64,000 bases of DNA from an uncultured Bdellovibrionales bacterium (GTDB lineage: Bacteria > Patescibacteriota > Minisyncoccia > Moranbacterales > GWC2-37-73). The position numbers and the translations under genes were made by a program. Shown here piece by piece: positions 9,922 through 55,971 of this stretch (the stretch's first letter is position 1; each line of letters begins with the position of its first letter). Under the pieces are notes generated by a model. That model saw nothing but the letters and a program-made list of their open reading frames with translations, did not search any database and was not told where the DNA came from. The stretch covers positions 4,173 through 68,172 of the forward strand of contig CAZCMV010000002.1 of NCBI GenBank assembly GCA_964500125.1, in the 5' to 3' direction.

Positions 9922-9941
9922 GTTATCCAAAGTTATCCACA
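9922..9941 (+). promoter_or_regulatory. tandem DnaA-box-like pair TTATCCAAA-G-TTATCCACA
   Basis: Exact 9-mer consensus TTATCCACA at 9933..9941 preceded by one-mismatch copy one helical turn upstream. Confidence 0.4.
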
Positions 9942-9967
9942 GGTTGTTAACATTTACCATATTTCCC

Positions 9968-9995
9968 TTGACAACCGTTTTTTTTGGCGTATTCT
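9968..9995 (+). promoter_or_regulatory. sigma70-like promoter (TTGACA-16 bp-TATTCT) for M23 peptidase gene
   Basis: -35 TTGACA 9968..9973, -10 TATTCT 9990..9995; followed by strong SD AAGGAGGTG at ~10019. Confidence 0.45.
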
Positions 9996-10119
9996 GGGAT
10001 CTTGTTGTTTAAAAATCCAAAAGGAGGTGGTGGGAATGGAGATTGGATGAATTTGCTTCTGTCTAAGGAAAAATCACTGAAAGACTTACACCAAATACCG
10101 GTTCGAAAAGGAGAAAACA

Positions 10120-11469
10120 ATGAAAAAGATGGTTGCAATTCTTCTGTTCATCTTTCTGTCACTTACCAACATATGTACTACGGCAATCGCTGTTTGTCCG
10201 CAAAATTCTGGTCCATATACTCTGCCATTTACTTACAATGGCGTAACGTACCAGCATGCATTTACTACAGCATGGGTTTACGGACGCACTTTTTTGCTCT
10301 TCTACAATGATGGTCCGGTATATATGTGGGGAGCCACAGCCTACAAAACTACGAATCCCGTACAATATATGTATATTGATTCAGTTGATGACATATTCGG
10401 TAATGGAAATGATATCATATACGACAACTCATACGACACCATCGTATTTGCCCTTGGCAATTCTTACTGCCAAAGTTCCTGCAAGGAAAATTCCGATATC
10501 AACATTCTCAACGACGGAACATACTTCCAACGTAGCGATTATCATTGCAACTTTCTTTATAACGGAACAACGTCTCAGGTGATTGTGCCTGCTTCGAACT
10601 TCTTCAGTCCAACATATCAACTTACTGTCAACCTCAATCCTTCTGCGGGTGGGACAGTTACCAGCAGCTCGGGAAGTTTGACGTGTACCAATGGTGTTTG
10701 CACGGGGAGCTTTTCGGGAGATGTGCAACTGACGGCTTCGGCGGCGGATGGCTGGGAATTTGTGTATTGGATAGACGGAGGAAACAATGATACGACAAAT
10801 CCCAAGACGGTAAGCATGACTGCCGCAAAGGAGATGAAAGCCGTATTCAAGCTATTATCATTTCCTCTTACCAGCTACAACGCGTATAACGCGCCAGTGA
10901 GTTCCGTGTTTGACCATAGCGGAACGGCGCAATATGAAGACACTGATCACCAAGTGAAAACCTTTAAGGGTGAAACTAGCGAGATCCAGACTCCGTATTC
11001 TGGTACCACCTGCTATCCCAAGTCTGATAATTCAGCTTTTGGGTTGGGATTCAACTATGATGGAATCTCTGGTGCAGGAGTTTATTATCTCTGTTACAAC
11101 GGTCATCCGGGATATGATTACAAGGTAGCGAACAATACCCCAGTATACGCTGCTACTGATGGCGTAGCCCACTTACCCTCAAGTTTTCCCGGAGTTCAAA
11201 ACGCTCAAAATTACAATACTGTTGAAATAGAGCGCCAGGATGGTTACAAAACATATTACCTGCACCTCAGCAGTCAAAACGTAACCGAAAACCAGCCAGT
11301 TTACAGAGGACAAACAGCGATCGGTCACTCTGGCGATACAGGATCGCCTGGGTCGTACCATCTTCATTTTGAAGTTCAAAAAGATGGCATCCCAGTAGAT
11401 CCTTACGGATGGGAGGGATCCGGAAATGATCCCTACACAAGAGATACCAACTACAACTTGTGGAGATAG
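10120..11469 (+). CDS. secreted M23/LytM-family peptidoglycan endopeptidase
   Basis: Signal peptide; C-terminal HPGYDY...YYLHLS...GDTGSPGSYHLHFE (HxxxD and HxH zinc ligands). Confidence 0.75.
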   Translation: MKKMVAILLFIFLSLTNICTTAIAVCPQNSGPYTLPFTYNGVTYQHAFTTAWVYGRTFLLFYNDGPVYMWGATAYKTTNPVQYMYIDSVDDIFGNGNDIIYDNSYDTIVFALGNSYCQSSCKENSDINILNDGTYFQRSDYHCNFLYNGTTSQVIVPASNFFSPTYQLTVNLNPSAGGTVTSSSGSLTCTNGVCTGSFSGDVQLTASAADGWEFVYWIDGGNNDTTNPKTVSMTAAKEMKAVFKLLSFPLTSYNAYNAPVSSVFDHSGTAQYEDTDHQVKTFKGETSEIQTPYSGTTCYPKSDNSAFGLGFNYDGISGAGVYYLCYNGHPGYDYKVANNTPVYAATDGVAHLPSSFPGVQNAQNYNTVEIERQDGYKTYYLHLSSQNVTENQPVYRGQTAIGHSGDTGSPGSYHLHFEVQKDGIPVDPYGWEGSGNDPYTRDTNYNLWR

Positions 11470-11547
11470 TGCATAATTGGTAGAAATAAAGCCCTGCTTG
11501 AAAAATCAAGCAGGGCTTTAAAATACTAGATACAATGGCAAGAAAGA

Positions 11548-12288
11548 TTAATTGTCAAATTTAAATGTTGAAAGCATACGGTCTGATATTTCCTTATCAA
11601 GCGCATTCTCTGAAGTGAAGTAATTTTTTATTCTAATGCTATAAATATATTTTTTGTCATTCAAAAAAATATCCTTATTGCAGTTTCCTCCTTGGTCACA
11701 CGTTTTTATCACCTTCGCTTCAAGATCACTGATAGTTTCCATACCCATTAACTCAAAACTATTTTCAACAGCACCATTAGTAATTTTAGCATTTTCAATA
11801 TAATCATCTAAACCACTTTTATTTTTAGAAACAAACATAGAAAATTCGTTAGAATGTACACAGTCCTGATTATTTTTTAGATTATTTTGCGAAGGTCTAA
11901 AGGCTACGTAAAAATATACATCTGGTTGTTGTGCAAATTTTTGCGCATCTGCATCCTGTTCATACAAACTAAAACTAGCTGGATACTGAACCTGAAATCT
12001 AAATTTATCGCTTTTAAATTCTTGCCATTTTATATTTTTCACATTTTCCTCTGAGAAACAATCGCCTTCGGCATTTGTTTCTTGTTGATTTTTAATGCCT
12101 TGTTTTATATTAGATGGCAAAGCAACACCTGCAATTTGATCAATTTCCTGCCCCTTATCCACCTCCCACACAAACACTCCCACCGTAATGGCGATGATGA
12201 CCAAAATAATCGTACCAAGTAATATTCCCACTTTTTGATTTTTCATTTTTTGTTTTTGAAGTCCGATTATGTTTCGATTATACCACAA
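11548..12288 (-). CDS. hypothetical membrane-anchored/secreted protein (246 aa)
   Basis: N-terminal TM helix; no recognisable domain. Confidence 0.4.
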   Translation of the reverse strand: MWYNRNIIGLQKQKMKNQKVGILLGTIILVIIAITVGVFVWEVDKGQEIDQIAGVALPSNIKQGIKNQQETNAEGDCFSEENVKNIKWQEFKSDKFRFQVQYPASFSLYEQDADAQKFAQQPDVYFYVAFRPSQNNLKNNQDCVHSNEFSMFVSKNKSGLDDYIENAKITNGAVENSFELMGMETISDLEAKVIKTCDQGGNCNKDIFLNDKKYIYSIRIKNYFTSENALDKEISDRMLSTFKFDN

Positions 12289-12295
12289 AAATAAA

Positions 12296-12571
12296 TTATT
12301 CTTTGCTCATTTCCCTCCCCGCATTCCACGCCTCGGCGATGGTTTCGACGATTCTTTTGGAAGTAACACCAGTCGTTTCGCTCACTTCGGTTTCAACTTT
12401 TTTCACCTGTTCTTTTTTCACACCACTTTTTTGTAACAACGCGTCGATTTCCGAAAGCAATTGCTCAGAAAGCGAATGTTCCCCATGCCAAGAAGCCTCG
12501 CTGATTATTTTATCCGCGTCTTTGAGAACAAGTTTAATGTCGTTACCGTCTAATACTATCAATAAATTCAT
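12296..12571 (-). CDS. hypothetical 91-aa protein (weak resemblance to TsaB/YeaZ N-terminal half)
   Basis: MNLLIVLDGNDIKLVL...EASWHGEHSLSEQLLSEIDALL pattern loosely TsaB-like; uncertain. Confidence 0.25.
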   Translation of the reverse strand: MNLLIVLDGNDIKLVLKDADKIISEASWHGEHSLSEQLLSEIDALLQKSGVKKEQVKKVETEVSETTGVTSKRIVETIAEAWNAGREMSKE

Positions 12572-12654
12572 TATTGAATAATTAACGAGTTAATGTGTTA
12601 AAGAGTTATTCTCAACTCGTTAACCCGCGAACTCGTTAATAAATAATTGTTAAT

Positions 12655-13464: not shown

Positions 13465-13508
13465 TCGAGTGTCCGCCAGCTGGCGGAATTCGTAAATTAG
13501 AGTCGCCT
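13452..13508. repeat. intergenic repeat element copy a (CCATTCG-GTGTCCGCC-hairpin-GGCGGAATTCGTAAATTAGAGTCGCCT)
   Basis: Near-identical to 35563..35645 apart from a hairpin indel; overlaps the amidase start codon. Confidence 0.6.
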
Positions 13509-13608
13509 ATGTATTTAAGTATAAACCAAAAGCTACCCTTCTGGATAGCCTTTGTTTGTTGTTGAAACATTTGAGTAATTCGTATGTCTATCTTTATATT
13601 AAAGTCAC

Positions 13609-14394: not shown

Positions 14395-14436
14395 ATATCA
14401 TTATGTTATTAATTATAAATTGCTTGCATTGACCAC

Positions 14437-16477: not shown

Positions 16478-16480
16478 GTG

Positions 16481-22620: not shown

Positions 22621-23184
22621 TTAACTATTTTTTTCTATAATTTCGGCTACTTTTTGGATAGCTTCATCTAGTTTTCCTTCTTCATTAATTACTGTATAAT
22701 CGTAAATGTCCGTGTGTTTGAGCCATTCTTTGGTGTATTCCATGCGCTCTTGAATATATTCTTCACTAACTCCATCACGCCTTCTGATTCTGTCAGCTAA
22801 TATTTCCAAGCTTGGCGCATTAACGAATATTGCCTTTATCTGTGGATAAATTTTTTTGGCTGTTTCAACCCCCTTGTATTCTATTTTCCAAATTCCCACT
22901 TTTCCTGACTGCGAAACTCTTTCTATTTCCTCTTTAGTAACACCATATAAATTTCCATTATATTGCTGTGCCCATTCAGCAAAACCACCTTTATACCTTT
23001 TAGCAATAAACTCCTCCTTTGAAATAAAATAATATGGATTGCCCATGAATTCCCCTGGGCGCTTATCTCGGGTAGTTGTAGTTATTACACGCTCAATGGG
23101 AAATATTTTTTCCAAACCATTAATTATGGAGTCTTCGCCAGCTCCTGATGGTCCTGAGATGATAAATAGTCTCTTTGTATCCAT
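22621..23184 (-). CDS. gmk: guanylate kinase
   Basis: GPSGAGEDS P-loop, TTTTRDKRPGE motif. Confidence 0.85.
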   Translation of the reverse strand: MDTKRLFIISGPSGAGEDSIINGLEKIFPIERVITTTTRDKRPGEFMGNPYYFISKEEFIAKRYKGGFAEWAQQYNGNLYGVTKEEIERVSQSGKVGIWKIEYKGVETAKKIYPQIKAIFVNAPSLEILADRIRRRDGVSEEYIQERMEYTKEWLKHTDIYDYTVINEEGKLDEAIQKVAEIIEKNS

Positions 23185-35514: not shown

Positions 35515-35645
35515 ATCGTATGTAAGAGCGACTCTAATACGCTAATTTGTCACCCTAATGACTCTAATAAATCCATTCGGGTCATTAGAGTGTCCGCCTC
35601 CGCCAGTTGGCGGATGGCGGAATTCGTAAATTAGAGTCGCCTCTT
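35515..35645. repeat. composite intergenic repeat element copy b, MITE-like, with inverted termini GAGCGACTCTAAT ... ATTAGAGTCGCCTC and nested GC hairpin
   Basis: Four TTAGAGT/ACTCTAA cores in inverted symmetry; right half near-identical to 13452..13508. Confidence 0.6.
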
Positions 35646-36793
35646 TAGCTTCTTATCGGCATGATAACGTAGGTAAAAGAATCTACAACTTTATTATCGT
35701 CACCTTCGGTAATTTTCAAAACAGCAGGAGAAGCACTGTCATTAAGCATTAACATCAGACGTGCAGATGAAACAGCTTGAACTCCATCAACCATATATCT
35801 TGGATTGAATATGATTTTTATGTCCGGACCTTCTATTCTTGCTCTCAGAATAGTTTGATTATCACCAATATCTTCTGCGCGTGACTGCACTGAAACTTGT
35901 TGCTCATTGGCTTCCGCAGAAATATGCACTTCGCCGGCCTTGTTGCTCGTAAAAACTCCGGCAAGCTTAACTGCGCGAAGTACTTCATCTTTTTCTAAAA
36001 CTATCTTTGTCTTGAAAGATTGAGGGATAATTTGTTTATAAGGAGGATATTTACCGTTAATCAGACGTGACACAATTCGCACATTATCAACTTGAAAGAA
36101 TATCTGACTTTCTTCAATTCCCACCAACACTTCCTGAGTTTGTTGACCAATAACACGTAAAACTTCAGCCATCGTATGCATCGGAACAATTGCAGAAGGA
36201 TTTTTTTCCAAAAAAGCTGCATATATTTGCGTATCTTTAGGTTTTGCGACAAGCACGCTTTCCGCTAAACGAAAACTATCCGTAGCAGCAAGGTGCACCT
36301 CGTCTGCAAACAACATCATATTGATACCTGTTAACTCCGGCCTAGTTGAATCCAAGGAAACACACGTAATCAATTTGGATAAATGTTCTCTTAATTCCTG
36401 AGCATCTATCGAAAAAAGGAAATCACCTTCCATTTCGGGAATTATCGGAAAATCATGTGCTTGCAAACCTTTCATGCGAGCTTTGGAAGAACCACTGGAA
36501 ATTTGCAAGATTTGATCTTTGAGCACCAGAGATATAGTGCCATCAGCAGAAAGGTTATTCACGAAATTGCTAAGCAACTTGGCTGGCACGGTAATTTTTC
36601 CCGCCTCCTCTATCTTGGCGCCTATCTTTAGAAAAACGCCTATTTCCAAATTAGTTGCCGAAACCTTAAGCATTCCTTGCTCTGTTTCCAAAAGAATATT
36701 TTCCAAAATAGGCAAGGCTATTTGTTTGCCCACCACTCGTTCAGTGTTATATATTGCTTTTTTGAAATTTTCCTGAGTACAAGTGACTTTCAT
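35645..36793 (-). CDS. dnaN: DNA polymerase III subunit beta (sliding clamp)
   Basis: 382 aa, three-domain clamp architecture, adjacent to dnaA. Confidence 0.9.
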   Translation of the reverse strand: MKVTCTQENFKKAIYNTERVVGKQIALPILENILLETEQGMLKVSATNLEIGVFLKIGAKIEEAGKITVPAKLLSNFVNNLSADGTISLVLKDQILQISSGSSKARMKGLQAHDFPIIPEMEGDFLFSIDAQELREHLSKLITCVSLDSTRPELTGINMMLFADEVHLAATDSFRLAESVLVAKPKDTQIYAAFLEKNPSAIVPMHTMAEVLRVIGQQTQEVLVGIEESQIFFQVDNVRIVSRLINGKYPPYKQIIPQSFKTKIVLEKDEVLRAVKLAGVFTSNKAGEVHISAEANEQQVSVQSRAEDIGDNQTILRARIEGPDIKIIFNPRYMVDGVQAVSSARLMLMLNDSASPAVLKITEGDDNKVVDSFTYVIMPIRS

Positions 36794-36891
36794 ATTCGTT
36801 TCTCGCTTTATTCGGATTAGTTTTGCAAATTTTCCGCATATGCCAACACAAAGTTCGCATATACATATGTAAAGAAATTCTAGAAATTATC

Positions 36892-38301: not shown

Positions 38302-38512
38302 GCATTCATTATGTATGAAAAAGTATAACATCGTCAAGTTATCCACACCAGCAGTTTTAAAAATGTATACTGTTAATAACCTGTGGATAAATAATGATTA
38401 CATCCACATCTTTCCCTTGGCCTGCTTTTCGATTAATTTATTGACTTTTTTACGCTAAATTGGTACACTTTTGCTTAGTACTGAATATAATTACTAAATT
38501 CCTATATCAAGT
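38302..38512. other. oriC region: DnaA boxes TTATCCACA (38339..38347), TGTGGATAA (38382..38390), ATCCACA (38402..38408) plus AT-rich unwinding stretch, between dnaA and rpmH
   Basis: Consensus boxes visible; canonical rpmH-dnaA intergenic location. Confidence 0.75.
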
Positions 38513-44769: not shown

Positions 44770-45952
44770 TCCTATAATTATTTCTATCTGTCTCACTATT
44801 GTCAGCTTGCCTCTATATCTTGTTAAGTTTTCTTTTTTTAGTCTACCTCTAAATCTTCTTTTGCTAATTTCCTTGTTTTCCTTGCTAGTAATAATTTCAC
44901 ACACTTCTCTCAAAAATGCTTTTTTATTTTTAAAAAACAACCGACTTATTATTTTTTTCACTTTGCTAATAATTTTCGGCTGCCTTTTGTCAATTTGGCA
45001 CAACGGCTTTTCACCAAGATCATTTTCTATTTTTATTCAATGGATTTTATTACCTGCCATCTTTGGTTTTTTTGCGGCCATAAATTTGCAAAATAAAGAA
45101 TCTCAACTGGACACTATTTTACTTTCTTTGTTCGTTTCAACTACTTTTGTTTCAGCAATAGCTTTATCCTACGCCATCCTAGGAATTTTTACTTACGATA
45201 GCCGCCTAAAAGCCTTCTATGAATCACCCAATCACTTGGCGATGTACATCATGCCAGGAGTTTTTCTCGGCACTTATTTTTTCATCAAAGCAAAGAAAGA
45301 AGATTTACTTGATAAGTCCTTGCTATATTCAATTTTAACTGTTTTTATAATTATTACTTTAACATTAACAAAATCAGCAGGTGCGATGATTGCAGTCCTT
45401 TTTTCTTTACCTTTGGCCTTCTTTTTTATCCGGAGTGGTCTTTTTCGCTACACTGCCAGATTAATACTTCTGTTTGGTTTTACTTTTTTGCTGTCACTTA
45501 GTTTGTTTAGTGCTACCCAAATCACTTATTTGTCGCATGTACCGGAAAGATCATCCTTGGCTTCCCGCTTCATGATTTGGCAATCAGCAACAAAAATATT
45601 GCTTGATAATCCGCTTTATGGCATAGGTCCAGGAAACTTTCAAGCAAAATATCTGGCCTATCAAAAATATTTCCCACCTTATTTGGAATGGGCCGTGCCA
45701 GAGCCGCATAATTTATATTTGGCATTTTGGCTACAGACTGGTTTGCTTGGATTTATTGGTTTTATTCTTTTAGTCTTACTTGTCTTGAAATCACTTGCAT
45801 TTAAAACCAAACAAAAAAATGCCTTGCTTGCTTGGACGCTTTTGGGCATTTTTGTTGCTCTTCTTATGCACGGATTGATTGATACGCCTTATTGGAAAAA
45901 TGATCTGGCTTTTGTTTTTTGGATATTATGCGAAATTGCTTTCCTAATCTAA
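44753..45952 (+). CDS. second O-antigen ligase-like membrane protein
   Basis: Polytopic; TKSAGAMIAVLFSLPLAF loop and conserved His near C-terminus. Confidence 0.5.
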   Translation: MKKKYDPIIISICLTIVSLPLYLVKFSFFSLPLNLLLLISLFSLLVIISHTSLKNAFLFLKNNRLIIFFTLLIIFGCLLSIWHNGFSPRSFSIFIQWILLPAIFGFFAAINLQNKESQLDTILLSLFVSTTFVSAIALSYAILGIFTYDSRLKAFYESPNHLAMYIMPGVFLGTYFFIKAKKEDLLDKSLLYSILTVFIIITLTLTKSAGAMIAVLFSLPLAFFFIRSGLFRYTARLILLFGFTFLLSLSLFSATQITYLSHVPERSSLASRFMIWQSATKILLDNPLYGIGPGNFQAKYLAYQKYFPPYLEWAVPEPHNLYLAFWLQTGLLGFIGFILLVLLVLKSLAFKTKQKNALLAWTLLGIFVALLMHGLIDTPYWKNDLAFVFWILCEIAFLI

Positions 45953-46692
45953 CTTCCTGTATCATATACTTGCTGCTTTATTTCATTTAAACATTTCACT
46001 GAATTGGTTATTATTATAAAATCATCCACTATTTCATAAGAAATACTGCTAACTTGATCATCAGGCATCCTTACCTTGGCATATCTTTGATATTTACCAT
46101 CAAACATCAGTTCTTGCTGTAAATGCTCCGGAGAAAAACTAATTTCCGGAAAAATAACTGATTTAACATCTTGCAACATGGTTTTCTCCCAATTCTTCAT
46201 GAAGCTAACTTCATCCATATAAAGATCTCCTTCATAACCTTCCATCAACTTAATCTTTAACAGGATTCCCATGCCTTTAAAAGTTTCCTGGGAACTGAAG
46301 GAGCACACGAAATTGCTATAATCATTCGTTTCAAGCAAACTGTATAAATTGTCTTCTATATTTAAATTAATCGCCTTGGCAAATTCATCGAGTTTTGCAG
46401 AAGTTCCGGCAGAATCTAACCACACTGTCTCTTTGCTGATTGGCGAAGAAACAAATTTAGAAAATGAATCCCTGATTTCATTTTCTTTGCTCCCCTTTTC
46501 AGATTTTTCAATATCTGAAATTTCGTTATTCACGGGTCTTTCCACTATTGGCATTTCAGATAATTGCTGTTGATCATTTTTTGGTTCAACAAAAACATTA
46601 TTTTTTTTATCAAAATAAACTGCAATGGCAATTACCACTATTGATATAATACTTAACACTGAAATTGCAATTAAAACTATTTTTTTATTCAT
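45949..46692 (-). CDS. hypothetical N-terminally anchored protein (247 aa), last gene of envelope operon
   Basis: Single N-terminal TM; no domain recognised. Confidence 0.4.
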   Translation of the reverse strand: MNKKIVLIAISVLSIISIVVIAIAVYFDKKNNVFVEPKNDQQQLSEMPIVERPVNNEISDIEKSEKGSKENEIRDSFSKFVSSPISKETVWLDSAGTSAKLDEFAKAINLNIEDNLYSLLETNDYSNFVCSFSSQETFKGMGILLKIKLMEGYEGDLYMDEVSFMKNWEKTMLQDVKSVIFPEISFSPEHLQQELMFDGKYQRYAKVRMPDDQVSSISYEIVDDFIIITNSVKCLNEIKQQVYDTGS

Positions 46693-46701
46693 ATTGTTTT
46701 T

Positions 46702-47586
46702 TTATTTACAATAATCAGACGCTCTTATAACACCTTTGCAGTTGGCCATATCTTTGGAAGTAACATTACCATTAACTAAACCAGTTTTTGTTCCTGCAGC
46801 ATGAATCTTAACCGTACATCCCTCATTTTTACAAATAAACACATGTCCTCCGGAAAAAGACGATGGGCTTCTTATGACAACCGCATCTCCTGTATGTAAA
46901 GAGCTTTGGGGAACACATCCTTTGGTACGACTAGCCATTTGCCCCGTAGAACCACCGGGGGATTTGCATCCGGCGTTTTTATAGGCATTTTCAACAAAAT
47001 TTGAACAATCAGTATAGGGAGGATTTCCCTTACAGCCATTTCTCGAACAACCATACTTGGGATTACAATAACGACAACCGCTATTTTTTAATTTTTCCGC
47101 AGCATCTAATACCTGACCTTTTGCAACGCTATTATCATTACCATCCGAAAATTTCACAGGTCCTTCTGCAGCATTTGGCATTGATGCCGTATTTACTTCT
47201 ACTGAAATCAAATTAAGATTCAATTTTACCAAATCCGGATTGATAACATAAAGCAAAATATATGCTGTAAGCACTGCAACCAATCCAATAATAGCATCGG
47301 TTATGATATTTTTAGCAGTGGTTATGGAAGCATTGTTTCCTGCACTAGTTACATAAAGAAAACCTCCCACAGTAAGCATGAAAAAAGCTGCAATACCTAC
47401 GGTCCAAATAAAGAATTTGTAAATAGCAGAAAGAAGGTCAGGAAAAGAAGGTGATGAACCAGCATTAAAGAATCCCGGAAATTGTTCGAGAAGTTTGTAT
47501 TCAAATGCTGCTTGAGCATGCTGAGACAAGAGAAAGCAAAAAGATATACTCAGGCAGAAGCAAAGAAAAAATTTCTTGCTTTTCAT
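46702..47586 (-). CDS. bitopic membrane protein: conserved two-helix N-module (pilin-like) fused to C-terminal CHAP-type amidase/peptidase domain
   Basis: N-module identical to paralog 49242..50168; C-terminus DCSNFVENAY...GDAVVI...GGHVFIC (Cys and His of CHAP). Confidence 0.55.
   Translation of the reverse strand: MKSKKFFLCFCLSISFCFLLSQHAQAAFEYKLLEQFPGFFNAGSSPSFPDLLSAIYKFFIWTVGIAAFFMLTVGGFLYVTSAGNNASITTAKNIITDAIIGLVAVLTAYILLYVINPDLVKLNLNLISVEVNTASMPNAAEGPVKFSDGNDNSVAKGQVLDAAEKLKNSGCRYCNPKYGCSRNGCKGNPPYTDCSNFVENAYKNAGCKSPGGSTGQMASRTKGCVPQSSLHTGDAVVIRSPSSFSGGHVFICKNEGCTVKIHAAGTKTGLVNGNVTSKDMANCKGVIRASDYCK
47204..47571. repeat. 368-bp direct repeat copy 1 (one mismatch to 49754..50121)
   Basis: Identity verified by eye over the whole length; encodes the shared N-terminal module. 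Confidence 0.9.
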
Positions 47587-47597
47587 ATGTTTATTTT

Positions 47598-48746
47598 CTA
47601 TAGTTTTATTTTATAAATCTTGGAATCTATTTTGTTTATAAAAAACAATGCATCTTCGTTATTGGAAAGAAAAATCTTGGAAGCATCATATTTCTCAGAC
47701 AATTCATTGAGTTCAACAATTCTTTCCTTTTTTCCTGTTTCAATGTTTATCTTCCAAAAAGTATCAACTGTATTAAATTTTTCTGCAAGATAATCGTTAG
47801 GAATCACAACATTCTCAGGAATCCCACCCGGCAAAGCATAATATACGGTTTTATTGTCCGACGACCAAACACACTTAGATGCAAATGTAGGAATTCCCAA
47901 GTTTTTATATTCGCCATTCTTGTCAATTATGCCCAGAACAATTTTCTTGCTGTTTTCTTCTTCAAGACTGCTGATAATAGCGTGTTGTCCATTTGGCGAC
48001 CATAAATAATCGGCTCCAAATTTTCCTCCGAATATTTTTTTCAAATCGGTTCCGCCTATGCCTACCACAAAAAGTTGCGTTTCTTCAGATGCCCAGGGGG
48101 AATTCCAAAAAGAAATATTTGAAGATTGCGGCACAGCCGAAACACTCACATGCTTAAATGGAATATCAACAATTTTTTTCCAATTGCTGCCGTCCGGATC
48201 GGCCACATTCAGCGTTCTTTCTTTTTTTTGCGAATCGAAATATTTATATATTATTTTCGCTCCGATTCCATCCCATTTCACTGTATCAAGGTTTTCTTTT
48301 AACTTAGTACCCTTACCGTTAGCATAGTTATACGTATAAAATTCCGTCTTGCCTTTTTTATCAAACGTAGATATCACTTGAACGCCATCAGGTGACCAAG
48401 TAACACTTTGAAGTCCAACTAACTCTTCGTCTGCAACGCTTTTTTTTCCGGAAGCATCCGTATTAACGTCCCAAACCCTTCCATCAACAGCATAGTACCT
48501 AATCATTTCAGAATCTTTAACATAAGCAGCACTAACAACGCCCTCATCGGAAACAGCTGCAACAATTCCTTTTTTGTCAGTTCCGATATCTGAAAACATA
48601 TCGCCTTCTTTTTTTATAGAAACGTTTGTGTCTTCAATATTAGCATTTTTAGCATTTTTATTACTAAAAGCAAAATTATACACACCCCAAAAAAACAGGG
48701 TGATTCCTAATACGATCAGAGTTATAATAAATATTTTTTTGATCAT
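47598..48746 (-). CDS. TolB-like beta-propeller protein (PD40/WD40-like repeats), N-terminal anchor
   Basis: Repeated ...SPDG/SPNG... blades (TWSPDGVQV, YLWSPNGQH, VWSSDNKTVYY). Confidence 0.5.
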   Translation of the reverse strand: MIKKIFIITLIVLGITLFFWGVYNFAFSNKNAKNANIEDTNVSIKKEGDMFSDIGTDKKGIVAAVSDEGVVSAAYVKDSEMIRYYAVDGRVWDVNTDASGKKSVADEELVGLQSVTWSPDGVQVISTFDKKGKTEFYTYNYANGKGTKLKENLDTVKWDGIGAKIIYKYFDSQKKERTLNVADPDGSNWKKIVDIPFKHVSVSAVPQSSNISFWNSPWASEETQLFVVGIGGTDLKKIFGGKFGADYLWSPNGQHAIISSLEEENSKKIVLGIIDKNGEYKNLGIPTFASKCVWSSDNKTVYYALPGGIPENVVIPNDYLAEKFNTVDTFWKINIETGKKERIVELNELSEKYDASKIFLSNNEDALFFINKIDSKIYKIKL

Positions 48747-48773
48747 TTTTATAAAGAATTTATTCTGTCATTA

Positions 48774-49235
48774 TCAAAAAAAAGATTTTCCGTTCGGACA
48801 AAAACTAAGTCCATAATTTTCCCCCGCCAATTCATTGTTTACATTGTATGGAAAAGTCAAATATACATCCAACTTGCATGCTTCCTCTTCATTTATTTTG
48901 AGTGTTTGCAAAAAGTCTTTTTCCGCCTCATCACGAGCATCGTTTTCATTTTCTTTGGCTAATATAAGAATAACAAAATTATTATCTTCCTCAAAATAGG
49001 TAGTGTTAAAATTTTGTTTTTCTCTGAAAGTAATGGTTCCTGAAAATTTTTCTGCAGAATCAGAATATATTGCACTACTATCAAAATTATTCTGCACGTT
49101 TTCTGATATATTCGAAGGATTTGTGCTGTTTGTTTTTTCAAAACCTTTGTCTTGTTTCGGTAACATGAAAAAAACAACTCCTGCGCTAATCAATATCAGA
49201 ATAATTACAATTATTATTATTCTTTTTTTTCTCAT
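48774..49235 (-). CDS. hypothetical small anchored protein (153 aa)
   Basis: N-terminal TM; Asn/Glu-rich. Confidence 0.35.
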   Translation of the reverse strand: MRKKRIIIIVIILILISAGVVFFMLPKQDKGFEKTNSTNPSNISENVQNNFDSSAIYSDSAEKFSGTITFREKQNFNTTYFEEDNNFVILILAKENENDARDEAEKDFLQTLKINEEEACKLDVYLTFPYNVNNELAGENYGLSFCPNGKSFF

Positions 49236-49241
49236 ATTTTT

Positions 49242-50168
49242 TTAAAAATGGCATGACTTATTAGTGCTCCATTGATTCCAACCCAATCTTAGAATCTTAC
49301 AAGATATTTGTATATTGAAACTAGCATCTTTTAATTTTCTTTTGCATTCTTCATATTGTGCTTCTTTGCCGCTTTTCACTTCACAATCATATCCTTTGTT
49401 CCCTATCCTTTTTCCTTGCATGCCACCGCCGTATGTATTAAAAAGCTTGTCACATCCAGGAATCCTATATCCGTTTGCAATTAAATTAACTTGAAAAAGA
49501 CCCACGGAAAATGCTTGTTTTTTTCCATTATGTATACAAACATCGGATGTGCTTTCCAGGGCAGGCACTCCTTCACTTTCCAAGTGGCATATGGATGAGG
49601 CCTTTTTTGCTGCTGCTCCAAAACAAGTATTACTCAGTGTTTCTACGGAACAAGGTGTTTTTGTTTCAGGAGTGCATTTTTTGTCTGAACGACCTCCTCC
49701 AGTGACGCTTCTAGTTTCACTTTGTTCCGTCCTTAATTCATTTAAATTCAAAGAAATCAAATTAAGATTCAATTTTACCAAATCCGGATTGATAACATAA
49801 AGCAAAATATATGCTGTAAGCACTGCAACCAATCCAATAATAGCATCGGTTATGATATTTTTAGCAGTGGTTATGGAAGCATTGTTTCCTGCACTAGTTA
49901 CATAAAGAAAACCTCCCACAGTAAGCATGAAAAAAGCTGCAATACCTACGGTCCAAATAAAGAATTTGTAAATAGCAGAAAGAAGGTCAGGAAAAGAAGG
50001 TGATGAACCAGCATTAAAGAATCCCGGAAATTGTTCGAGAAGTTTGTATTCAAATGCTGCTTGAGCATGCTGAGACAAGAGAAAGCAAAAAGATATACTC
50101 AGACAGAAGCAAAGAAAAAAATATCTGACCAGTTTTCTTGGTTTTCTTTTTTTTGTTTTTATATTCAT
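49242..50168 (-). CDS. bitopic membrane protein: same N-module fused to lytic-transglycosylase (SLT/lysozyme-like) domain
   Basis: CHLESEG...AFSVGLFQVN resembles SLT catalytic Glu-Ser and GLMQ motifs; Cys-rich. Confidence 0.5.
   Translation of the reverse strand: MNIKTKKRKPRKLVRYFFLCFCLSISFCFLLSQHAQAAFEYKLLEQFPGFFNAGSSPSFPDLLSAIYKFFIWTVGIAAFFMLTVGGFLYVTSAGNNASITTAKNIITDAIIGLVAVLTAYILLYVINPDLVKLNLNLISLNLNELRTEQSETRSVTGGGRSDKKCTPETKTPCSVETLSNTCFGAAAKKASSICHLESEGVPALESTSDVCIHNGKKQAFSVGLFQVNLIANGYRIPGCDKLFNTYGGGMQGKRIGNKGYDCEVKSGKEAQYEECKRKLKDASFNIQISCKILRLGWNQWSTNKSCHF
49754..50121. repeat. 368-bp direct repeat copy 2
   Basis: See copy 1. Confidence 0.9.
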
Positions 50169-50209
50169 CTATTATTTACGTCTTCTTAAACTTGACTCCG
50201 TTTCTATTC

Positions 50210-52990
50210 TCAAACAGTTTTATTTTTACCCAATCCCGGTGTGACATAGAAAATAGCTCCCATAACAACAATCATCAAGACAGCAGTTAATGCAAGTCTC
50301 AACAAAAACATCATCTCTCCTGGAAGATTGCTTACCAGACTTGCCATTAATCCTCCTTTTGCCTTGGCTAATTCATCATAACTTTGAACAACTTCCACCT
50401 CCGCCGAGGAGTCCAAATACCTTTCCGTTGCATCTTGTGCGGAAACTCCCCAAATATTATAAAGGGCTTTTCTCACATTCAAAACCTGCTCTTCATCTGT
50501 CGCCATAGCATAAACAGCTTCTATTGAAACATCGTAAGTAGAGCCCTCCCCATTTTCTGCAAGAAACTCAAGGTTTTCACTGTTTGCATATTGATCACCA
50601 TCAACTTCCCAAAAATAAGTCGCATAGCTGCTTATCCATGATGGCGTGAAAGCAGCCTTCATAAACACGCTGTTTCCTTGAATCGTTTCAAAAAGAATAC
50701 TACTATTATCAGCGGTTTCATTTCCCTCCATATCTTTGTATATTCCCAGTTGTTTGGGCCACACTAAATCCTTATTCGCAGATTCTATATTCACAGATGG
50801 TTGCACTATCTTAAATTTTCTATTCACTGTTTGAGCCATTTTTGTTTTCGTGTCTTTGAATGTAACTTCGGCTTCAAATATTTCTCCGTCTGTTCCAACT
50901 GCTGGAAAAAATATAATGTTACTACCCGTTTCTTTGCATTCAGAAGAATGTTCACTATTGCAAAAAACATTTTCTTTGTTTATTTTCCAAGAAAAATTCA
51001 CTAATTGACCATCCTTATTAGGAATAGCTAAACCTATTATGGAATTTTCTATTATAGGACATTCTGCAAGTTCCTCTCCCTCTGTACAAATCTCACTATC
51101 CTTTTTTAAACTAATCTTACCATCATCATCCGCTTTTACCAGATAAGCATCTATATCAGTGCTAGATTTAGTTAATTGTACAATAGCTGATCCCCTACCT
51201 ATCCTATTTTGTTCCGAAGAATTTTCAGATACCTTGGCTTTTATTCTTATATATTGTACCAGTCTATTGGAACCATAAAAAATGTCATCTGGAAATTCAG
51301 CCTTAAATTCAAACTCATTAATACCAAAACCTTTCATTGTTGAATGTTTTTCTAATTTATTTGTGACATCAATCCATTTATCATCCAAGGGCGCTTTTGT
51401 TCCATCATTACTTGCCTCAACGGTCCACTCATAATAAAGAGAAGAAACATCATCTGTTCCACTGACGGTCGTTTGTGCTTTTATATTATCACCCGTGCCG
51501 GTGCGCGTAGAATCATTATTTGCTCTACTTGGATTAGCTAAAACATTTACTTCTAAATTTCCAACACCACCTCCGGTCGGATCCAAAAGATTTTCTTCAA
51601 GACAATCATTTAAATCAAAATCAACCGTGAGGAATCCTGTGTCAATTTGAGGAACTTTTTGATATTCAACATAAAAAGCTCTCTTCTTTTTTATTTCATC
51701 ACTAAATTTCTTACAAACATTATTTGAGAAAGCCCAAGTTCTCATATAGGCATTGTCATCATGCTTGGTAGCAACAGCACTAATACCCTCAACAGCAAGC
51801 CCTACCTGATCCCCAGACCTATAAGTCCAAGAAAATGACTTCGCTCCCAAACCAAGCACATTAGCCTCGTCCGGAATACCGTTTTCGGCAGTAGACTTAT
51901 TATTTGGATCAGTTCCCCAAAATTTCTCCTCAGCCATTTCAAAATCCCCGTCTCCAGTTTTTATATTTGAACCACGAAGATCCTTAGGAGCAACTTGGGT
52001 TGGAAACAAATGCTTACAAAGATTATTAGATTTCTTGAAAGTACAGGTTGGCGATCCTGTTGATATAACAGAACACATCCCTCCAGCACTCAGATCCTCT
52101 TTTAAAATATTGCATATAAACTCCTTATTTGCAGAATCGTTGACAATATATTCAAAAATAGTCCTATTTGATTGTCCGCAAACCGGATTTTTTTGTTGTG
52201 TCGAAGCTAAACCACTGATTTGAGGACACTTAACTCTAGCTTGAAAATTTTCAACATCCTCATCACTTTCCACTTTGCACTCATAATCGTCAGTCTCTGC
52301 ACATATATTGCGAGTACCGGATTCACAAGTTATCAACTCATTTTTACCACAAGCCACAGATCCTCCTGATTCACAAGAATAAACAGGGATCGTTTTTCTT
52401 AACTCATAAAATCTTCCTTTTTCAAAATCTTGAATATAACAATCCTCTATATCCACATCATTTTGAGATTTATATGGCATTTCCCAATCACCAGGATCAG
52501 GACTAACCTCATACCCATCACTATTGGAATCACTAGAGCTATTATAATCAGTATCATTCTCCTTATCAAAGTCTCCTTTAGCAATTATTTTAGCAGCCTC
52601 TATCTTCCAATCATTAACTGTAATCTTGCCATCATTATCCCTATCACATGAACCACCTGAAGATCCTAATTCACAGCCCTCTCTTTTTAAATACCAAGTA
52701 TAATAAAGTTCATCAGAATCTTCTTTAAATCCCTGTGGTAAGGCTTGTGCCACTATCTTATCTCCGGTTCTGGCTGTTAGATTATCAAATGTCACCTTAA
52801 CTTCCACGCCTTGTTTTTTCATAGAAGCTGAGTATGCCTCTTTTAAATCAGAGGGGCGTAATAATTGTATCCTTCCCCCAACTACTGGATCAGCTGCCAA
52901 AGAAAAAAGTGGAGATAAAATTAAAACAATAACTTGAAAAGTTAAATAAAAAATAAATATTATTTTTTTTGTTTTAAAAAAAGAATTCAT
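50210..52990 (-). CDS. 926-aa Cys-rich secreted surface protein with EF-hand/dockerin-like Ca sites and C-terminal TM anchor
   Basis: Signal peptide; DRDNDGKITVND; GTDPNNKSTAENGIPDE; more than 40 Cys; C-terminal LALTAVLMIVVMGAIFYVTPG helix. Confidence 0.55.
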   Translation of the reverse strand: MNSFFKTKKIIFIFYLTFQVIVLILSPLFSLAADPVVGGRIQLLRPSDLKEAYSASMKKQGVEVKVTFDNLTARTGDKIVAQALPQGFKEDSDELYYTWYLKREGCELGSSGGSCDRDNDGKITVNDWKIEAAKIIAKGDFDKENDTDYNSSSDSNSDGYEVSPDPGDWEMPYKSQNDVDIEDCYIQDFEKGRFYELRKTIPVYSCESGGSVACGKNELITCESGTRNICAETDDYECKVESDEDVENFQARVKCPQISGLASTQQKNPVCGQSNRTIFEYIVNDSANKEFICNILKEDLSAGGMCSVISTGSPTCTFKKSNNLCKHLFPTQVAPKDLRGSNIKTGDGDFEMAEEKFWGTDPNNKSTAENGIPDEANVLGLGAKSFSWTYRSGDQVGLAVEGISAVATKHDDNAYMRTWAFSNNVCKKFSDEIKKKRAFYVEYQKVPQIDTGFLTVDFDLNDCLEENLLDPTGGGVGNLEVNVLANPSRANNDSTRTGTGDNIKAQTTVSGTDDVSSLYYEWTVEASNDGTKAPLDDKWIDVTNKLEKHSTMKGFGINEFEFKAEFPDDIFYGSNRLVQYIRIKAKVSENSSEQNRIGRGSAIVQLTKSSTDIDAYLVKADDDGKISLKKDSEICTEGEELAECPIIENSIIGLAIPNKDGQLVNFSWKINKENVFCNSEHSSECKETGSNIIFFPAVGTDGEIFEAEVTFKDTKTKMAQTVNRKFKIVQPSVNIESANKDLVWPKQLGIYKDMEGNETADNSSILFETIQGNSVFMKAAFTPSWISSYATYFWEVDGDQYANSENLEFLAENGEGSTYDVSIEAVYAMATDEEQVLNVRKALYNIWGVSAQDATERYLDSSAEVEVVQSYDELAKAKGGLMASLVSNLPGEMMFLLRLALTAVLMIVVMGAIFYVTPGLGKNKTV

Positions 52991-53015
52991 ATAATTTAAT
53001 TAAAAAATATTATCC

Positions 53016-53678
53016 TCACTTAATCGCTATAACACTTGCATCAACTATGATCAAAAAAATAATATGCGCAATAGTAGAATAAACCAAAGACTTGCTCTTA
53101 AATACAATAATTCCTGAAAATAAGGAAAATATTAAATAAGGTACAAAATACCAATCAAGAGAATTTGTAAGTACAAGAAGTAGAAAAAAAACAATTGTTT
53201 GCGCTAATATTGCAAAATAACCTATTTGTTTTTTCAAGGAAAGCATCAGAAATCCCCTGAAAAAAAATTCATAAAATACTACAAAAGGAAGTACTAGTGA
53301 AAATTCATAAAATAAAAATTTAAAAAAGTTTGCCTGAATTTCTCCTTCCAAAATATACTGCAATGAAAATTCTGTATAATAAAAAACCACATAAAAAAAC
53401 AACAGTGCTATAAGCAAGGAAATGAAACCGTATAAAAAACCTTTTCTCCATTCACCTAAACAAATACCTATCTCTCTAAGAGGTTTTTTTGTAACAATTA
53501 AATTGAAAAAAAATGGGACCAATAAGAAGAAAGATATGGTTACTGCAATATTTTGAAAATTATTTTTTGTGGGAAAAATCGAATAAATAACGACAATAAA
53601 TATTGCAAATAAACTGTTGAAAATAACTTCTTTTTTCATATTTTGTTTTATAAATATTGCAAATAGATTATAACACAT
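53016..53678 (-). CDS. CPBP/Abi-family intramembrane metalloprotease-like protein (start uncertain; possibly MKKEVIF near 53639)
   Basis: Polytopic; YEFFFRGFL (EExxxR-like) and STIAHIIFL (HxxxN/D-like) motifs. Confidence 0.5.
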   Translation of the reverse strand: MCYNLFAIFIKQNMKKEVIFNSLFAIFIVVIYSIFPTKNNFQNIAVTISFFLLVPFFFNLIVTKKPLREIGICLGEWRKGFLYGFISLLIALLFFYVVFYYTEFSLQYILEGEIQANFFKFLFYEFSLVLPFVVFYEFFFRGFLMLSLKKQIGYFAILAQTIVFFLLLVLTNSLDWYFVPYLIFSLFSGIIVFKSKSLVYSTIAHIIFLIIVDASVIAIK

Positions 53679-53969
53679 GAATGATTTAAAAACAAAACAT
53701 ATTATTTCAATATCTGGTCAATCTTTTTTAATAAGTTTTTTTTGATCTCTTCTAATTATATATTCTATATATAATATAATTAAAAATATTATTACTATTA
53801 TTAGGAGATTGGATAAGTGGATAAATATAAATAAAGGCTTCTTTAATAATAAATTATTCTAAAATATTATTGAATAAAGATCTTTTTTGTAGTGTTTAGA
53901 CTTGTTCATAACTTTTTTATGACAAAAATAAAAATTTTTAACCAAACTAATATACAAGATCTCAAAAGG

Positions 53970-54082
53970 TTATCAACAAATAAAAAGAGTTTATTTATAG
54001 ATTATCCACAATTTATACACAAGCAATTTTTATTTTTTGCTTAAGGAGAAGCATAAAAGGATAAATCCACAAGTTATCCACA
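53970..54082 (+). promoter_or_regulatory. cluster of five or six co-oriented DnaA-box-like 9-mers (TTATCAACA, TTATCCACA, TTATACACA, AAATCCACA-AG-TTATCCACA)
   Basis: Two exact consensus boxes plus three one-mismatch boxes within 113 bp, overlapping lspA 3' end and upstream of the envelope operon. Confidence 0.5.
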
Positions 54083-54449
54083 CATCTGCGAGATTAAAAA
54101 GAGGAAAATGAAAAACAGGAATTTTGATATAATCAATAACGCAACCTAAAAAAAATCTATCTAATAAATTAGCTATTCCACCCGAAATGATTAATAGCAA
54201 GGGTATCTTATATATTTCTTTGTTGCAAAAATAAAAATAAACAAAAATTAAAAACAAGGCTATTATTGGCCAAAAAATAGATAAATTAGGATATAATCCC
54301 CAAGAAATACCCGCATTGCAAACAAAAAATCCGCCAAAAGAGCGGATTAGTTGTTTAACGGCAAAATCAAAAAAAACCAAAATAAACAAAAATAAAGCTA
54401 AAAAGATTTTTTTGTTGGTAAATTCTGTTATGGCTAGCATTCTATACAT
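54030..54449 (-). CDS. lspA: lipoprotein signal peptidase II
   Basis: CNAGISWG, GGIANLLDR, FNLADV motifs. Confidence 0.7.
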   Translation of the reverse strand: MYRMLAITEFTNKKIFLALFLFILVFFDFAVKQLIRSFGGFFVCNAGISWGLYPNLSIFWPIIALFLIFVYFYFCNKEIYKIPLLLIISGGIANLLDRFFLGCVIDYIKIPVFHFPLFNLADVWITCGFILLCFSLSKK

Positions 54450-54784
54450 GTTTTGGCAGCTGGATAGGCGCGTAATCTTTCTTCACTTATGTCTTTTTTA
54501 CAATTTTCGCATTTTCCATAGGTGCCGAGCTTAATCCTCTCCAATGATTCTTCAATTTCTCTGAGTTGTTTTTCTAGAGTATTTTCAAGAGCAAGATTGT
54601 CAGTATATTCTTCAACTTCGGAGGCATTTTCGTCTTCGTCGGGGCCTATTTCATTAAATCTGGTCTGATAATCTCCCTTGGTATCTGTGGGATCCCCTAT
54701 GCGGGAAAGTTCATTTTCCAGCTGGCTTTTTTGTGCTAACAATTGTTGTTTCAGTTCCTCAATAATTTTTTGATTAATAGACAT
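54434..54784 (-). CDS. DksA/TraR-family C4 zinc-finger protein
   Basis: Coiled-coil N-part, C-terminal GTYGKCENCKKDISEERLRAYPAAKTCIEC. Confidence 0.7.
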   Translation of the reverse strand: MSINQKIIEELKQQLLAQKSQLENELSRIGDPTDTKGDYQTRFNEIGPDEDENASEVEEYTDNLALENTLEKQLREIEESLERIKLGTYGKCENCKKDISEERLRAYPAAKTCIEC

Positions 54785-54856
54785 ATGAGTTATTTTATAT
54801 GGGTTAGTTTTTTAATTGGCATTGCTTTTTTAGTATAGCAAGTATTACAACTTTGT

Positions 54857-55264
54857 CTAGAAAAAAATGTCGCAAATATGGCAAATCTTAGCTATTTCGC
54901 GAGAATCTTTGTCAACATAAACAGAAATTGCGTCAAAACGGAACGGGCTATCCCATAAGTTTTTATATTTTAAGTAAGCCTGGGCAATTTTGTTGAGCTT
55001 ATGAAGTTTGTCTCGCGTAATATTTGCTTCAGCCGGAAAAGCATTGGTATTTTTTGATATAGTGCGCGTTTTTACTTCTGCAAAGACGAGAGTTTTTTTG
55101 TCAGTGGCGATAATGTCGATCTCTCCCAATTGTCTGCCTCGGCTATTGTGGTAATTTGTCTCAATTATCTTATAGCCTTTCTTTTGTAAAAATAAAGCCG
55201 CCGCTTCTTCTCCAAAAGAACCTGTTTTATGACGCTTGTCATTGCTTTTTCTGAAAATACTCAT
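54857..55264 (-). CDS. yraN: YraN-family (UPF0102) endonuclease
   Basis: GEEAAALFLQKKGYKII...GEIDIIA...FAEVKTR. Confidence 0.75.
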   Translation of the reverse strand: MSIFRKSNDKRHKTGSFGEEAAALFLQKKGYKIIETNYHNSRGRQLGEIDIIATDKKTLVFAEVKTRTISKNTNAFPAEANITRDKLHKLNKIAQAYLKYKNLWDSPFRFDAISVYVDKDSREIAKICHICDIFF

Positions 55265-55951
55265 AAATCAGCTATTTAGATACAAAAAAACACCCTATCC
55301 GGGCACTTCTCTTATTAAAATCATTTCCGTGGTATGGTTACCCGGCGCTGCAAGCGCCCAAAATATGTAATATGTGGCGGCAGCGCCGGATGTTTGTCAT
55401 GTACCAACATGTTAATCTGAAACTTTTAGCCCGGGTGAAGTGGCATCGAGTTTACCCATAACATGTATTTTGTGTACATGTTTATTTTTTTGACTGCTTG
55501 TCCCTGAGTTTTATTTTTCACAAGAGTCTTTCTTCTACCGTTCTCTGGTCTTTTGACCTTTGTTTTTAGAAAGAACTTTTCTTTTTCTTTTTTATTTTTG
55601 TTTTTTGAAAAAGATTTTTTTATTTTTGTTTTTAGGGTCCTCCGCTCAGGATTTTTGAAATACGAAGGCGGTTTTGAAATGTTATTCAAAACACTTGAAT
55701 AGTAGAAGAGTTCCAACCACAAATAGGGGGAAATTGTGATTGGAATTCTTCCACCATCTCGCAACGGTATATGTTTTTAAGAAACTTATGTATCCATTAT
55801 AGCAGAAAAAATGTGGGGAGTCAATTTTATGAAACTAAAAATTTATATTTTGGCTTCAATAATGTGTATTTATGAATATCTTCAGTATGGATATCGAAAG
55901 CGTGTATTTTTATAGTTAGAAAAAATAAATTACTTTCTGTTTTGCCCATAG

Positions 55952-55971
55952 TTTTCCACAAGTTATCCACA
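55952..55971 (+). promoter_or_regulatory. tandem DnaA-box-like pair TTTTCCACA-AG-TTATCCACA
   Basis: Same 20-bp architecture as 9922..9941 and 54062..54082. Confidence 0.4.

Follow-up and report, generated by a model that had tools for sequence, protein, structure and literature searches.

A 64-kb stretch of the chromosome of a member of Candidatus Moranbacteria (Moraniibacteriota), a lineage of Patescibacteria or the candidate phyla radiation (CPR), very probably carries its replication origin in the intergenic spacer between lspA and a CPBP-family protease gene (~53640–54082), ~15.5 kb away from the initiator gene dnaA. This prediction comes from the sequence of the whole 64,000-nt stretch (the window) and of related genomes. 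The lspA–CPBP spacer combines the only replication-polarity switch within the window with a cluster of DnaA boxes and a module of the kind at which DnaA unwinds DNA. An earlier note on this DNA had described the cluster, starting at 53970, as lying far from oriC, and had proposed a second origin module as one of its possible roles. The origin module stands; since the cluster coincides with the sole polarity switch and the unwinding-type module, we regard it as the origin itself and not a second one. The kind of system is already known, and an origin separate from dnaA has precedent. New here are an origin identified for this lineage, a move of that origin while the surrounding synteny stayed conserved, and a parallel decay at the ancestral site.

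Replication polarity switches at the lspA–CPBP spacer

Replication polarity was read from GC3 skew, the balance of G against C at third codon positions, taken gene by gene and always read on the + strand. This measure was adopted, and raw GC skew in 2-kb windows dropped, because gene orientation confounds the raw measure. Left of ~53.7 kb the GC3 skew is negative in almost every gene, whichever strand encodes it (mean −0.153; + strand genes −0.159, − strand genes −0.143), and right of 54.0 kb each real gene is positive (mean +0.241). A two-segment maximum-likelihood scan locates the change point at 53415/53418, with a log-likelihood ratio (LLR) of 67 versus a maximum of 8.5 in 200 permutations. 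A change from negative to positive skew is the signature of an origin, and the sign is calibrated within the clade: in more distant relatives the skew flips from negative to positive exactly at dnaA. No switch is seen across the region upstream of dnaA in the window (−0.205 versus −0.184). The GC-skew analysis recommended in the earlier note for confirming a single origin thus returns one switch of origin sign, at the lspA–CPBP spacer and not at dnaA. The boxes at 38339–38408, which the earlier note took for oriC, have neither a skew switch nor a long AT-rich tract in the ~220-bp dnaA–rpmH spacer around them.

The junction at which the switch occurs was found by exact-protein look-ups in three independent Logan assemblies (SRR8925823, SRR21295123 and SRR16951081), each with the order lspA–spacer–CPBP–926-aa gene and, from different sequencing runs, a 100% identical spacer sequence. 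An assembly chimera at the junction is therefore excluded. Two relatives sharing the arrangement were reached by walking outwards from a 382-aa anchor protein: L169 (JGI contig Ga0209319_1000050) and L172 (NCBI LBTZ01000004.1, GW2011_GWD2_38_11, the same contig as L088). Their gene order is that of the window, running from polynucleotide phosphorylase (PNPase) through x, yraN, dksA and lspA, across a spacer of 455–500 bp, to the CPBP gene, the giant-protein gene and onwards to yidC–rnpA–rpmH/dnaA. In each homologous spacer the boxes number six and form two opposed groups, and the GC3 change point of either genome spans exactly this spacer (4561/5028 in L169, LLR 9.8; 3949/4462 in L172, LLR 10.7). 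Most proteins of L169 and L172 are only ~30–70% identical to those of the window, and synonymous sites are therefore saturated. A common switch at saturated synonymous sites must reflect the present direction of replication, and so is no relic of an old inversion. Conservation of the cluster, another point raised in the earlier note, thus extends to these two genomes; L175 and more distant relatives lack the cluster.

The switch could alternatively be an inversion breakpoint or an assembly join, with the boxes regulating only transcription of the CPBP/surface-protein operon. Such an explanation would draw on a promoter-like site overlapping box 53970 (a consensus match only), on the head-on orientation of all right-hand genes to replication, and on the synteny with many Moranbacteria, which stops exactly at lspA, the gene order in those genomes continuing into comM. 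The identity of the junction in independent assemblies and the shared position of the switch in L169 and L172, despite their divergence, argue against it, and it leaves unexplained both the collapse of the dnaA–dnaN spacer and the shared unwinding module described below; we hold this explanation to be very improbable. Genus-level relatives anchored on PNPase have the order gyrA...PNPase–391-aa gene–gap–yraN–dksA–lspA followed by a comM-like gene; at lspA they show neither a box cluster nor a change of skew. The rearrangement breakpoint at lspA that they suggested was dropped once closer relatives showed the junction, the cluster and the switch.

Anatomy of the predicted origin

The region 53640–54100 has a GC content of 20%, and 257 of the 400 lowest-GC 100-bp windows fall within 53500–53999. 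The 461-bp spacer contains five boxes with at most one mismatch to the 9-mer TTATCCACA (two of them exact) against 0.15 expected, a count reached in none of 2000 local dinucleotide shuffles. Boxes are denser in the cluster spacer than in any other 400 bp of the window, which bears out the local enrichment that the earlier note had made a test of its proposal. The boxes are arranged in two opposed arrays, on the + strand at 53970–54082 and on the − strand at 53808–53911 (Table 1). The + array consists of five same-orientation boxes, in agreement with the earlier count of five or six: those at 54002 and 54074 are exact, those at 53970 and 54013 have one mismatch each and that at 54063 has two. 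The overlap with the 3' end of lspA was also correctly described, the 54063–54082 pair falling inside it. The tandems 54002/54013 and 54063/54074 are copies of an 18-nt direct repeat; the second of them has no counterpart in the aligned spacers of L169 and L172.

The − array is directed into AT-rich DNA. From 53824 downwards the − strand reads TTATCCACT-TATCCAAT-CTC CTA ATA ATA GTA ATA ATA TTT..., entering a tract that has 13% GC over 53700–53799. Two boxes proximal to this putative DNA-unwinding element (DUE) share one base (8-nt offset) and are followed by a run of triplets resembling DnaA-trios, the longest in the window by the published rule for a basal unwinding system (BUS). The rule (PMC8287927) calls for a box with at most two mismatches, a spacer of at most 16 bp, at least three trios with middle A and, optionally, a second box within 3 bp. 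Here, the box at 53816–53824(−), with one mismatch, is followed by an 8-nt spacer holding the second box and by 12 triplets, and 53808–53824(−) is the only BUS-rule match in the window to combine tandem boxes with a long trio run. A three-way alignment of the spacers from the window, L169 and L172 has a mean identity of 65%, with conserved blocks at boxes (the tandem 54002/54013, 53970 and 53816), at the trinucleotide run and at the AT-rich tract.

From this anatomy and published work on other bacteria, a sequence of events at the spacer can be proposed. DnaA would bind the two opposed arrays of 9-mer boxes, and a DnaA oligomer would extend from the DUE-proximal tandem (53808–53824) onto the trio-like repeats (53772–53807). 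It would then open the 13%-GC tract at ~53700–53771, as in the Bacillus-type BUS, and replication would proceed bidirectionally from the opened tract.

The Bacillus-type BUS is composed of a DnaA-box pair, DnaA-trios and an AT-rich region (PMC6669920, PMC8287927). The putative module in the window resembles it in the tandem box, the 8-nt spacer with C-rich bases, the trinucleotide run (middle A in the complement), the AT-rich tract and the nearby boxes, and in outgroup relatives the module immediately precedes dnaN, which is also its position in B. subtilis. It differs in being placed 15.5 kb from dnaA, between lspA and the CPBP-protease gene and not in the dnaA–dnaN spacer, in having trios that are mostly 3'-TAT-5' and not 3'-GAT-5', and in the one-base overlap of the proximal boxes. 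The E. coli oriC has a DUE at one edge and two opposed box arrays, with pairs 2 bp apart giving an 11-bp period. The predicted origin shares the DUE at the edge, the opposed arrays and the 11-bp-period pairs, as well as the separation from dnaA, but has no sequence homology to oriC of E. coli; the distance is 15.5 kb as opposed to about 42 kb, and the relocation seen here took place in a narrow CPR subclade whose gene order is otherwise conserved. That E. coli oriC is not adjacent to dnaA is noted in the literature (PMC8287927).

Several observations weigh against an origin at this spacer. Of the right replichore, the window includes no more than 10 kb and L169 and L172 ~4.5 kb, and the LLRs of the latter two are barely above their permutation maxima (9.5 and 7.8, respectively). 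All genes right of the spacer (at least 10 kb, 54030–64000, including rpsO, PNPase and gyrA) would be head-on to replication. L175 (GCA_040961635.1) matches the window in gene order to the left and right of the spacer, but its lspA–CPBP spacer measures 54 bp, with no boxes and no skew switch: adjacency of lspA and CPBP alone therefore does not imply an origin, and L175 may represent either the state before the gain of the origin or a later loss. The generic BUS pattern is unspecific in AT-rich DNA, with 17 matches window-wide versus 12.3 expected, and support for the module is therefore taken from its conservation and from its motif identity with dnaA–dnaN origins. The preferred 3'-GAT-5' is matched by the first trio positions only—in order the trios read 3'-GAG, GAT, TAT, TAT, CAT, TAT, TAT, keeping the middle A and departing mostly from the consensus at the first position.

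A proposed ancestral origin at dnaA–dnaN and its relocation

We compared 80 metagenome dnaA loci with regard to skew, dnaA–dnaN spacer and boxes, and they fell into two classes. In loci with DnaA 50–66% identical to that of the window (among them L098, L101, L111, L118, L121, L131, L138, L149 and L155), GC3 skew flips from negative to positive at dnaA, and the dnaA–dnaN spacer, mostly 213–295 bp long (~260), contains 1–4 boxes. In loci with DnaA 71–74% identical (among them L084, L088, L090, L091, L094 and L141), together with L097, the skew has one sign on either side of dnaA, and the spacer measures 8–158 bp and contains 0–1 boxes. The dnaA–dnaN spacer of the window, at 98 bp, has no box with at most one mismatch. 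These closer relatives keep the window's gene order from polA via dnaN–dnaA/rpmH–rnpA–yidC to the surface-gene block.

The dnaA–dnaN origins of the outgroup, supported by the skew, lie just upstream of dnaN and consist of an overlapping tandem box and a C-rich spacer followed by CTAAT/TTAAT-rTAATAATA and an AT-rich tract (Table 1). Those of L101 and L111 contain the overlapping tandem TTATCCAGATATCCAC, as found at 53808–53824 in the window. A single copy of the 14-mer TAATAGTAATAATA (at most one mismatch) is present in the window, at 53787(−) in the lspA–CPBP spacer. Over 2.5 Mb of loci it recurs 160–230 bp past the dnaA stop in L116, L118, L154 and L163. By its recurrence in dnaA–dnaN spacers it is therefore an origin-associated motif of the phylum, which in the window marks the lspA–CPBP spacer and not dnaA. 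We infer that the ancestral origin lay in the dnaA–dnaN spacer, and that in the subclade of the window an equivalent module now occupies the lspA–CPBP spacer, the old spacer having collapsed.

Boxes persist on the other side of dnaA. Box 38339 abuts a promoter-like −35 element of dnaA (consensus match), and 1–4 boxes are present upstream of dnaA in all close relatives; in the window, rpmH, rnpA and yidC are transcribed on the + strand from 38514, divergently from dnaA. The position of the 38339–38408 boxes is the classical arrangement for dnaA autoregulation, which is their likely role in place of oriC.

With exact boxes upstream of dnaA, and with clusters outside oriC known to modulate initiation in E. 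coli and B. subtilis (PMC5742627, PMC3245932), one could still place oriC at dnaA and read the 53970 cluster as a datA/DARS-like locus, titrating or recycling DnaA without firing. The earlier note had offered a titration locus of this kind as a possibility, and we rate it the least probable of the explanations considered: neither the window nor its close relatives have a skew switch at dnaA, the spacers flanking dnaA measure ~220 bp (dnaA–rpmH) and 98 bp (dnaA–dnaN, without boxes), and a titration locus would not create a switch of replication polarity, nor is it expected to share a trio/AT-rich module with outgroup dnaA–dnaN origins. The datA and DARS1/2 loci of E. coli (PMC5742627) are similar as DnaA-box clusters outside the site first taken as oriC. 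Unlike the 53970 cluster, which sits on the polarity switch and the unwinding module and so is not away from the origin, they coincide with neither. Their definition is by DnaA-ATP hydrolysis, ADP release and dependence on IHF/Fis, properties not readable from sequence.

Granted an origin at the lspA–CPBP spacer, it is conceivable, though doubtful, that the origin behaves as a movable cassette: the whole box/trio/AT-rich module, alike in motif and architecture to the ancestral one at dnaA–dnaN, would have arisen in an ordinary spacer, without rearrangement of the flanking genes, and the old site would then have decayed. If so, the tandem box pair at 55952 would be a co-evolved satellite, either part of a bipartite origin or an origin-proximal DnaA sink, and the birth of an origin at a new site would be naturally recorded in the series that leads from the outgroup (origin at dnaA–dnaN) through L175 (none visible at either site) to the three genomes with the origin at lspA–CPBP, namely the window, L169 and L172.

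A phylogenetically bracketed case of origin relocation, in an uncultured lineage of reduced bacteria, offers a way to study how origins move. It also has a practical side. Origin predictors and curators of metagenome-assembled genomes commonly anchor oriC at dnaA, which in this Moranbacteria subclade would misplace it by ~15.5 kb. A misplaced origin distorts the assignment of replichores, strand-bias statistics and coverage-based estimates of growth rate (index of replication, iRep; peak-to-trough ratio, PTR).

DnaA boxes elsewhere in the window

Exact copies of TTATCCACA number nine in the window against 0.59 expected, and none of 100 shuffles reaches nine; boxes with at most one mismatch number 36 against 18 expected. 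Seven of the nine exact copies are intergenic, while intergenic DNA makes up 11.9% of the window (binomial P = 1e-5). The excess of DnaA boxes reported in the earlier note is therefore real, all of its box coordinates are correct and all three of its 20-bp tandem arrangements are present. Its figure of roughly 36% for genome GC needs correction, the GC content of the window being 37.9%.

Table 1. Coordinates of the predicted origin, DnaA boxes and associated genes in the window, with origin modules of relatives for comparison
Feature	Position	Strand	Remarks
Predicted oriC: lspA–CPBP intergenic spacer and last ~50 bp of lspA	53640–54082		basis: GC3 change point, boxes, GC, L169/L172
AT-rich tract, putative DNA-unwinding element	53700–53771		basis: composition; same place in L169 and L172
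DnaA-trio-like run, 12 consecutive N-T-N triplets (complement 3'-NAN-5')	53772–53807	−	
Overlapping tandem boxes TTATCCACT/TTATCCAAT	53808–53824	−	directed into trio run; aligns with TTATACACA in L169 and L172
Degenerate box TTATGAACA	53903–53911	−	aligns with TTATCCACA in L172, TTATCCACC in L169
Box TTATCAACA, one mismatch	53970–53978	+	aligns with exact TTATCCACA in L169 and L172
Tandem pair TTATCCACA-at-TTATACACA, 11-bp period	54002–54021	+	kept as pair in L169 and L172
Tandem pair AAATCCACA-ag-TTATCCACA	54063–54082	+	within lspA 3' end
lspA	54030–54449	−	
CPBP-family protease gene	53016–53678	−	
dnaA	36892–38292	−	likely start ATG at 38292 (MNNKELW); relatives align from that Met; Pfam Bac_DnaA, DnaA_N, Bac_DnaA_C
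dnaN	35645–36793	−	
Collapsed dnaA–dnaN spacer, 98 bp, inferred ancestral origin site	36794–36891		
dnaA-promoter boxes	38339–38408		38339+, 38382− exact; 38371−, 38400+ with two mismatches
Exact TTATCCACA boxes	9933+, 22841−, 27863+, 27887−, 38339+, 38382−, 54002+, 54074+, 55963+		
20-bp tandem arrangement	9922–9941		gTTATCCAAAgTTATCCACA
20-bp tandem arrangement	54062–54082		tAAATCCACAagTTATCCACA
20-bp tandem arrangement	55952–55971		TTTTCCACAagTTATCCACA
Tandem pair TTATCCAAA-g-TTATCCACA	9923–9941	+	between divergent rpoB and M23-peptidase promoters
Exact box inside gmk	22841–22849	−	codons I-Y-P-Q
Palindromic pair TTATCCACA-N15-TGTGGATAA	27863–27895		over TrmB-family gene promoter
Tandem pair TTTTCCACA-ag-TTATCCACA	55952–55971	+	30 bp past stop of 391-aa gene; 1.9 kb from predicted oriC
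Window spacer module, for comparison			TTATCCACTTATCCAAT-CTC-CTAATAATAGTAATAATA
L118 dnaA–dnaN origin			TTTTCCACA-tcttcacc-ATCTTAATAGTAATAATAATA
L111 dnaA–dnaN origin			TTATCCAGATATCCACA-ccc-CTAATGATAATA
L101 dnaA–dnaN origin			TTATCCAGATATCCACC...
L096 dnaA–dnaN origin			TTATCCACA-taaaccga-TTTGTATTAATAATAG

Transcriptional control by DnaA, which the earlier note had considered for the 53970 cluster, is not the favoured reading there and is still plausible for the other box pairs: the boxes at dnaA, rpoB/M23, TrmB–polA and 55952 would fit DnaA autoregulation or transcriptional control, as judged by their positions. The 9923/9933 pair is flanked by two divergent TTGACA promoter-like sites (consensus match). 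Its strong box is conserved with the flanking sequence in two of three relatives, L177 and L178, which have the same arrangement (RpoB 97% and 90% identical), and its weak partner box is not conserved in these two. Also at this locus, the rpoB 5' leader (9690–9880, −), ~190 nt from a conserved TTGACA promoter to the start codon, is strongly conserved in four genomes whose RpoB is 86–97% identical to that of the window; a leader of this length may be regulatory.

The palindrome upstream of the TrmB-family gene is perfect, as the earlier note had it, and ends 23 nt from the TrmB ATG instead of 24 bp. One of its boxes occupies the −35/−10 spacer of a promoter-like site (consensus match) and the other lies at about +1. 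Directly after the TrmB-family gene comes polA, and holA lies beyond; the geometry of the pair suggests repression of a replication-gene operon; in most relatives the TrmB gene is not next to polA. The box inside gmk, the one exact copy that lies wholly within a gene away from the cluster, is judged a chance occurrence, since it is codon-driven and five homologues show no conservation of its nucleotides.

The 55952/55963 boxes occur as a tandem pair only in the window, L169 and L172, as a single box in L002 and L004, and not at all in six more distant relatives. The pair may serve regulation, or alternatively act close to the origin as an auxiliary or titration site. Its restriction to the three genomes with a relocated origin, the retention of boxes at dnaA, and the bipartite origins known in B. 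subtilis and H. pylori (PMC8235120) would suit a composite or dual origin, in which the lspA–CPBP module works together with the 55952 pair across the genes between them, or the dnaA-proximal boxes form a minor second origin. We think this improbable: the pair has no adjoining AT-rich or trio module, lies in a promoter region and is unneeded for the skew pattern, and the dnaA side gives no sign of firing in the skew. A single origin in the lspA–CPBP spacer remains the preferred reading. Between the 55952 pair and the promoter of the non-coding RNA described below there is a near-palindrome, AAAGTAAaTTACTTT (~55923–55936), which all seven aligned Moranbacteria retain, even where DnaA boxes are missing at this place. 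It looks like an operator for a dimeric regulator.

In B. subtilis, box clusters outside oriC regulate neighbouring genes and initiation (PMC3245932, PMC4447404). The window is similar in having high-affinity, often paired boxes in intergenic promoter regions near the origin (dnaA; TrmB–polA), which by analogy fits a role for DnaA as a transcription factor, possibly with titration as a side effect. The targets differ, the predicted sites here being at rpoB/M23 peptidase, TrmB–polA and the region upstream of the unclassified non-coding RNA; of these, only the rpoB/M23 box and the 55952 pair are conserved. The predicted sites at dnaA, TrmB–polA and rpoB/M23 amount to a first sketch of the DnaA regulon of a CPR bacterium.

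Neighbouring genes and a conserved non-coding RNA

To the right of lspA, all genes are on the − strand: a DksA-like gene, yraN and, beyond a 736-bp non-coding gap, the 391-aa gene, PNPase, a NYN-domain gene, rpsO and gyrA. In L001, L005, L007 and L010, the block homologous to 54030–64000 runs co-directionally with replication.

The left side of the spacer is occupied by CPR-type surface genes, encoding the 926-aa protein, proteins resembling type IV secretion system (T4SS) pilins and an NlpC/P60 protein. The homologue in L176 (1–9984) of the block with the CPBP, giant-protein, T4SS-pilin-like and NlpC/P60 genes (45949–53678) is contiguous with TrbL, PrgI and TraC/VirB4-type genes. By this contiguity, what the earlier note called the envelope operon is therefore probably part of a type IV secretion locus, namely the one described for Patescibacteria (PMC12102498). 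The contigs of the close relatives L091, L093 and L094, from independent metagenomes, all end ~8.4–8.9 kb upstream of dnaA, just past the second Wzy-like gene; the edge of the surface-gene block may therefore be difficult to assemble or vary between strains. AT content peaks in the window at 52913–53012 (100 bp, 8% GC). These 100 bp comprise the 5' end of the 926-aa gene (start 52990) and a short gap before the CPBP stop. They contain no DnaA box with at most one mismatch except that at 53010, and are probably a promoter or leader outside the box cluster.

The gap between yraN and the 391-aa gene contains a conserved structured non-coding RNA of ~500 nt (55286–55790, −). It has a near-consensus promoter, TTGACT-N17-TATAAT (−35 at 55819–55824, −10 at 55796–55801), and a short terminator-like stem at its end. 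A search with nhmmer found it in 13 Moranbacteria genomes. The RNA has no match in Rfam 15 at gathering threshold or E<=1, is not a tmRNA according to ARAGORN, and a literature search gave nothing relevant; it is possibly an undescribed large non-coding RNA. An open reading frame at 55426–55764 lies within it and is not conserved as a protein. RNAalifold predicts 65 base pairs, 40 of which have compensatory double changes, a long-range helix included.

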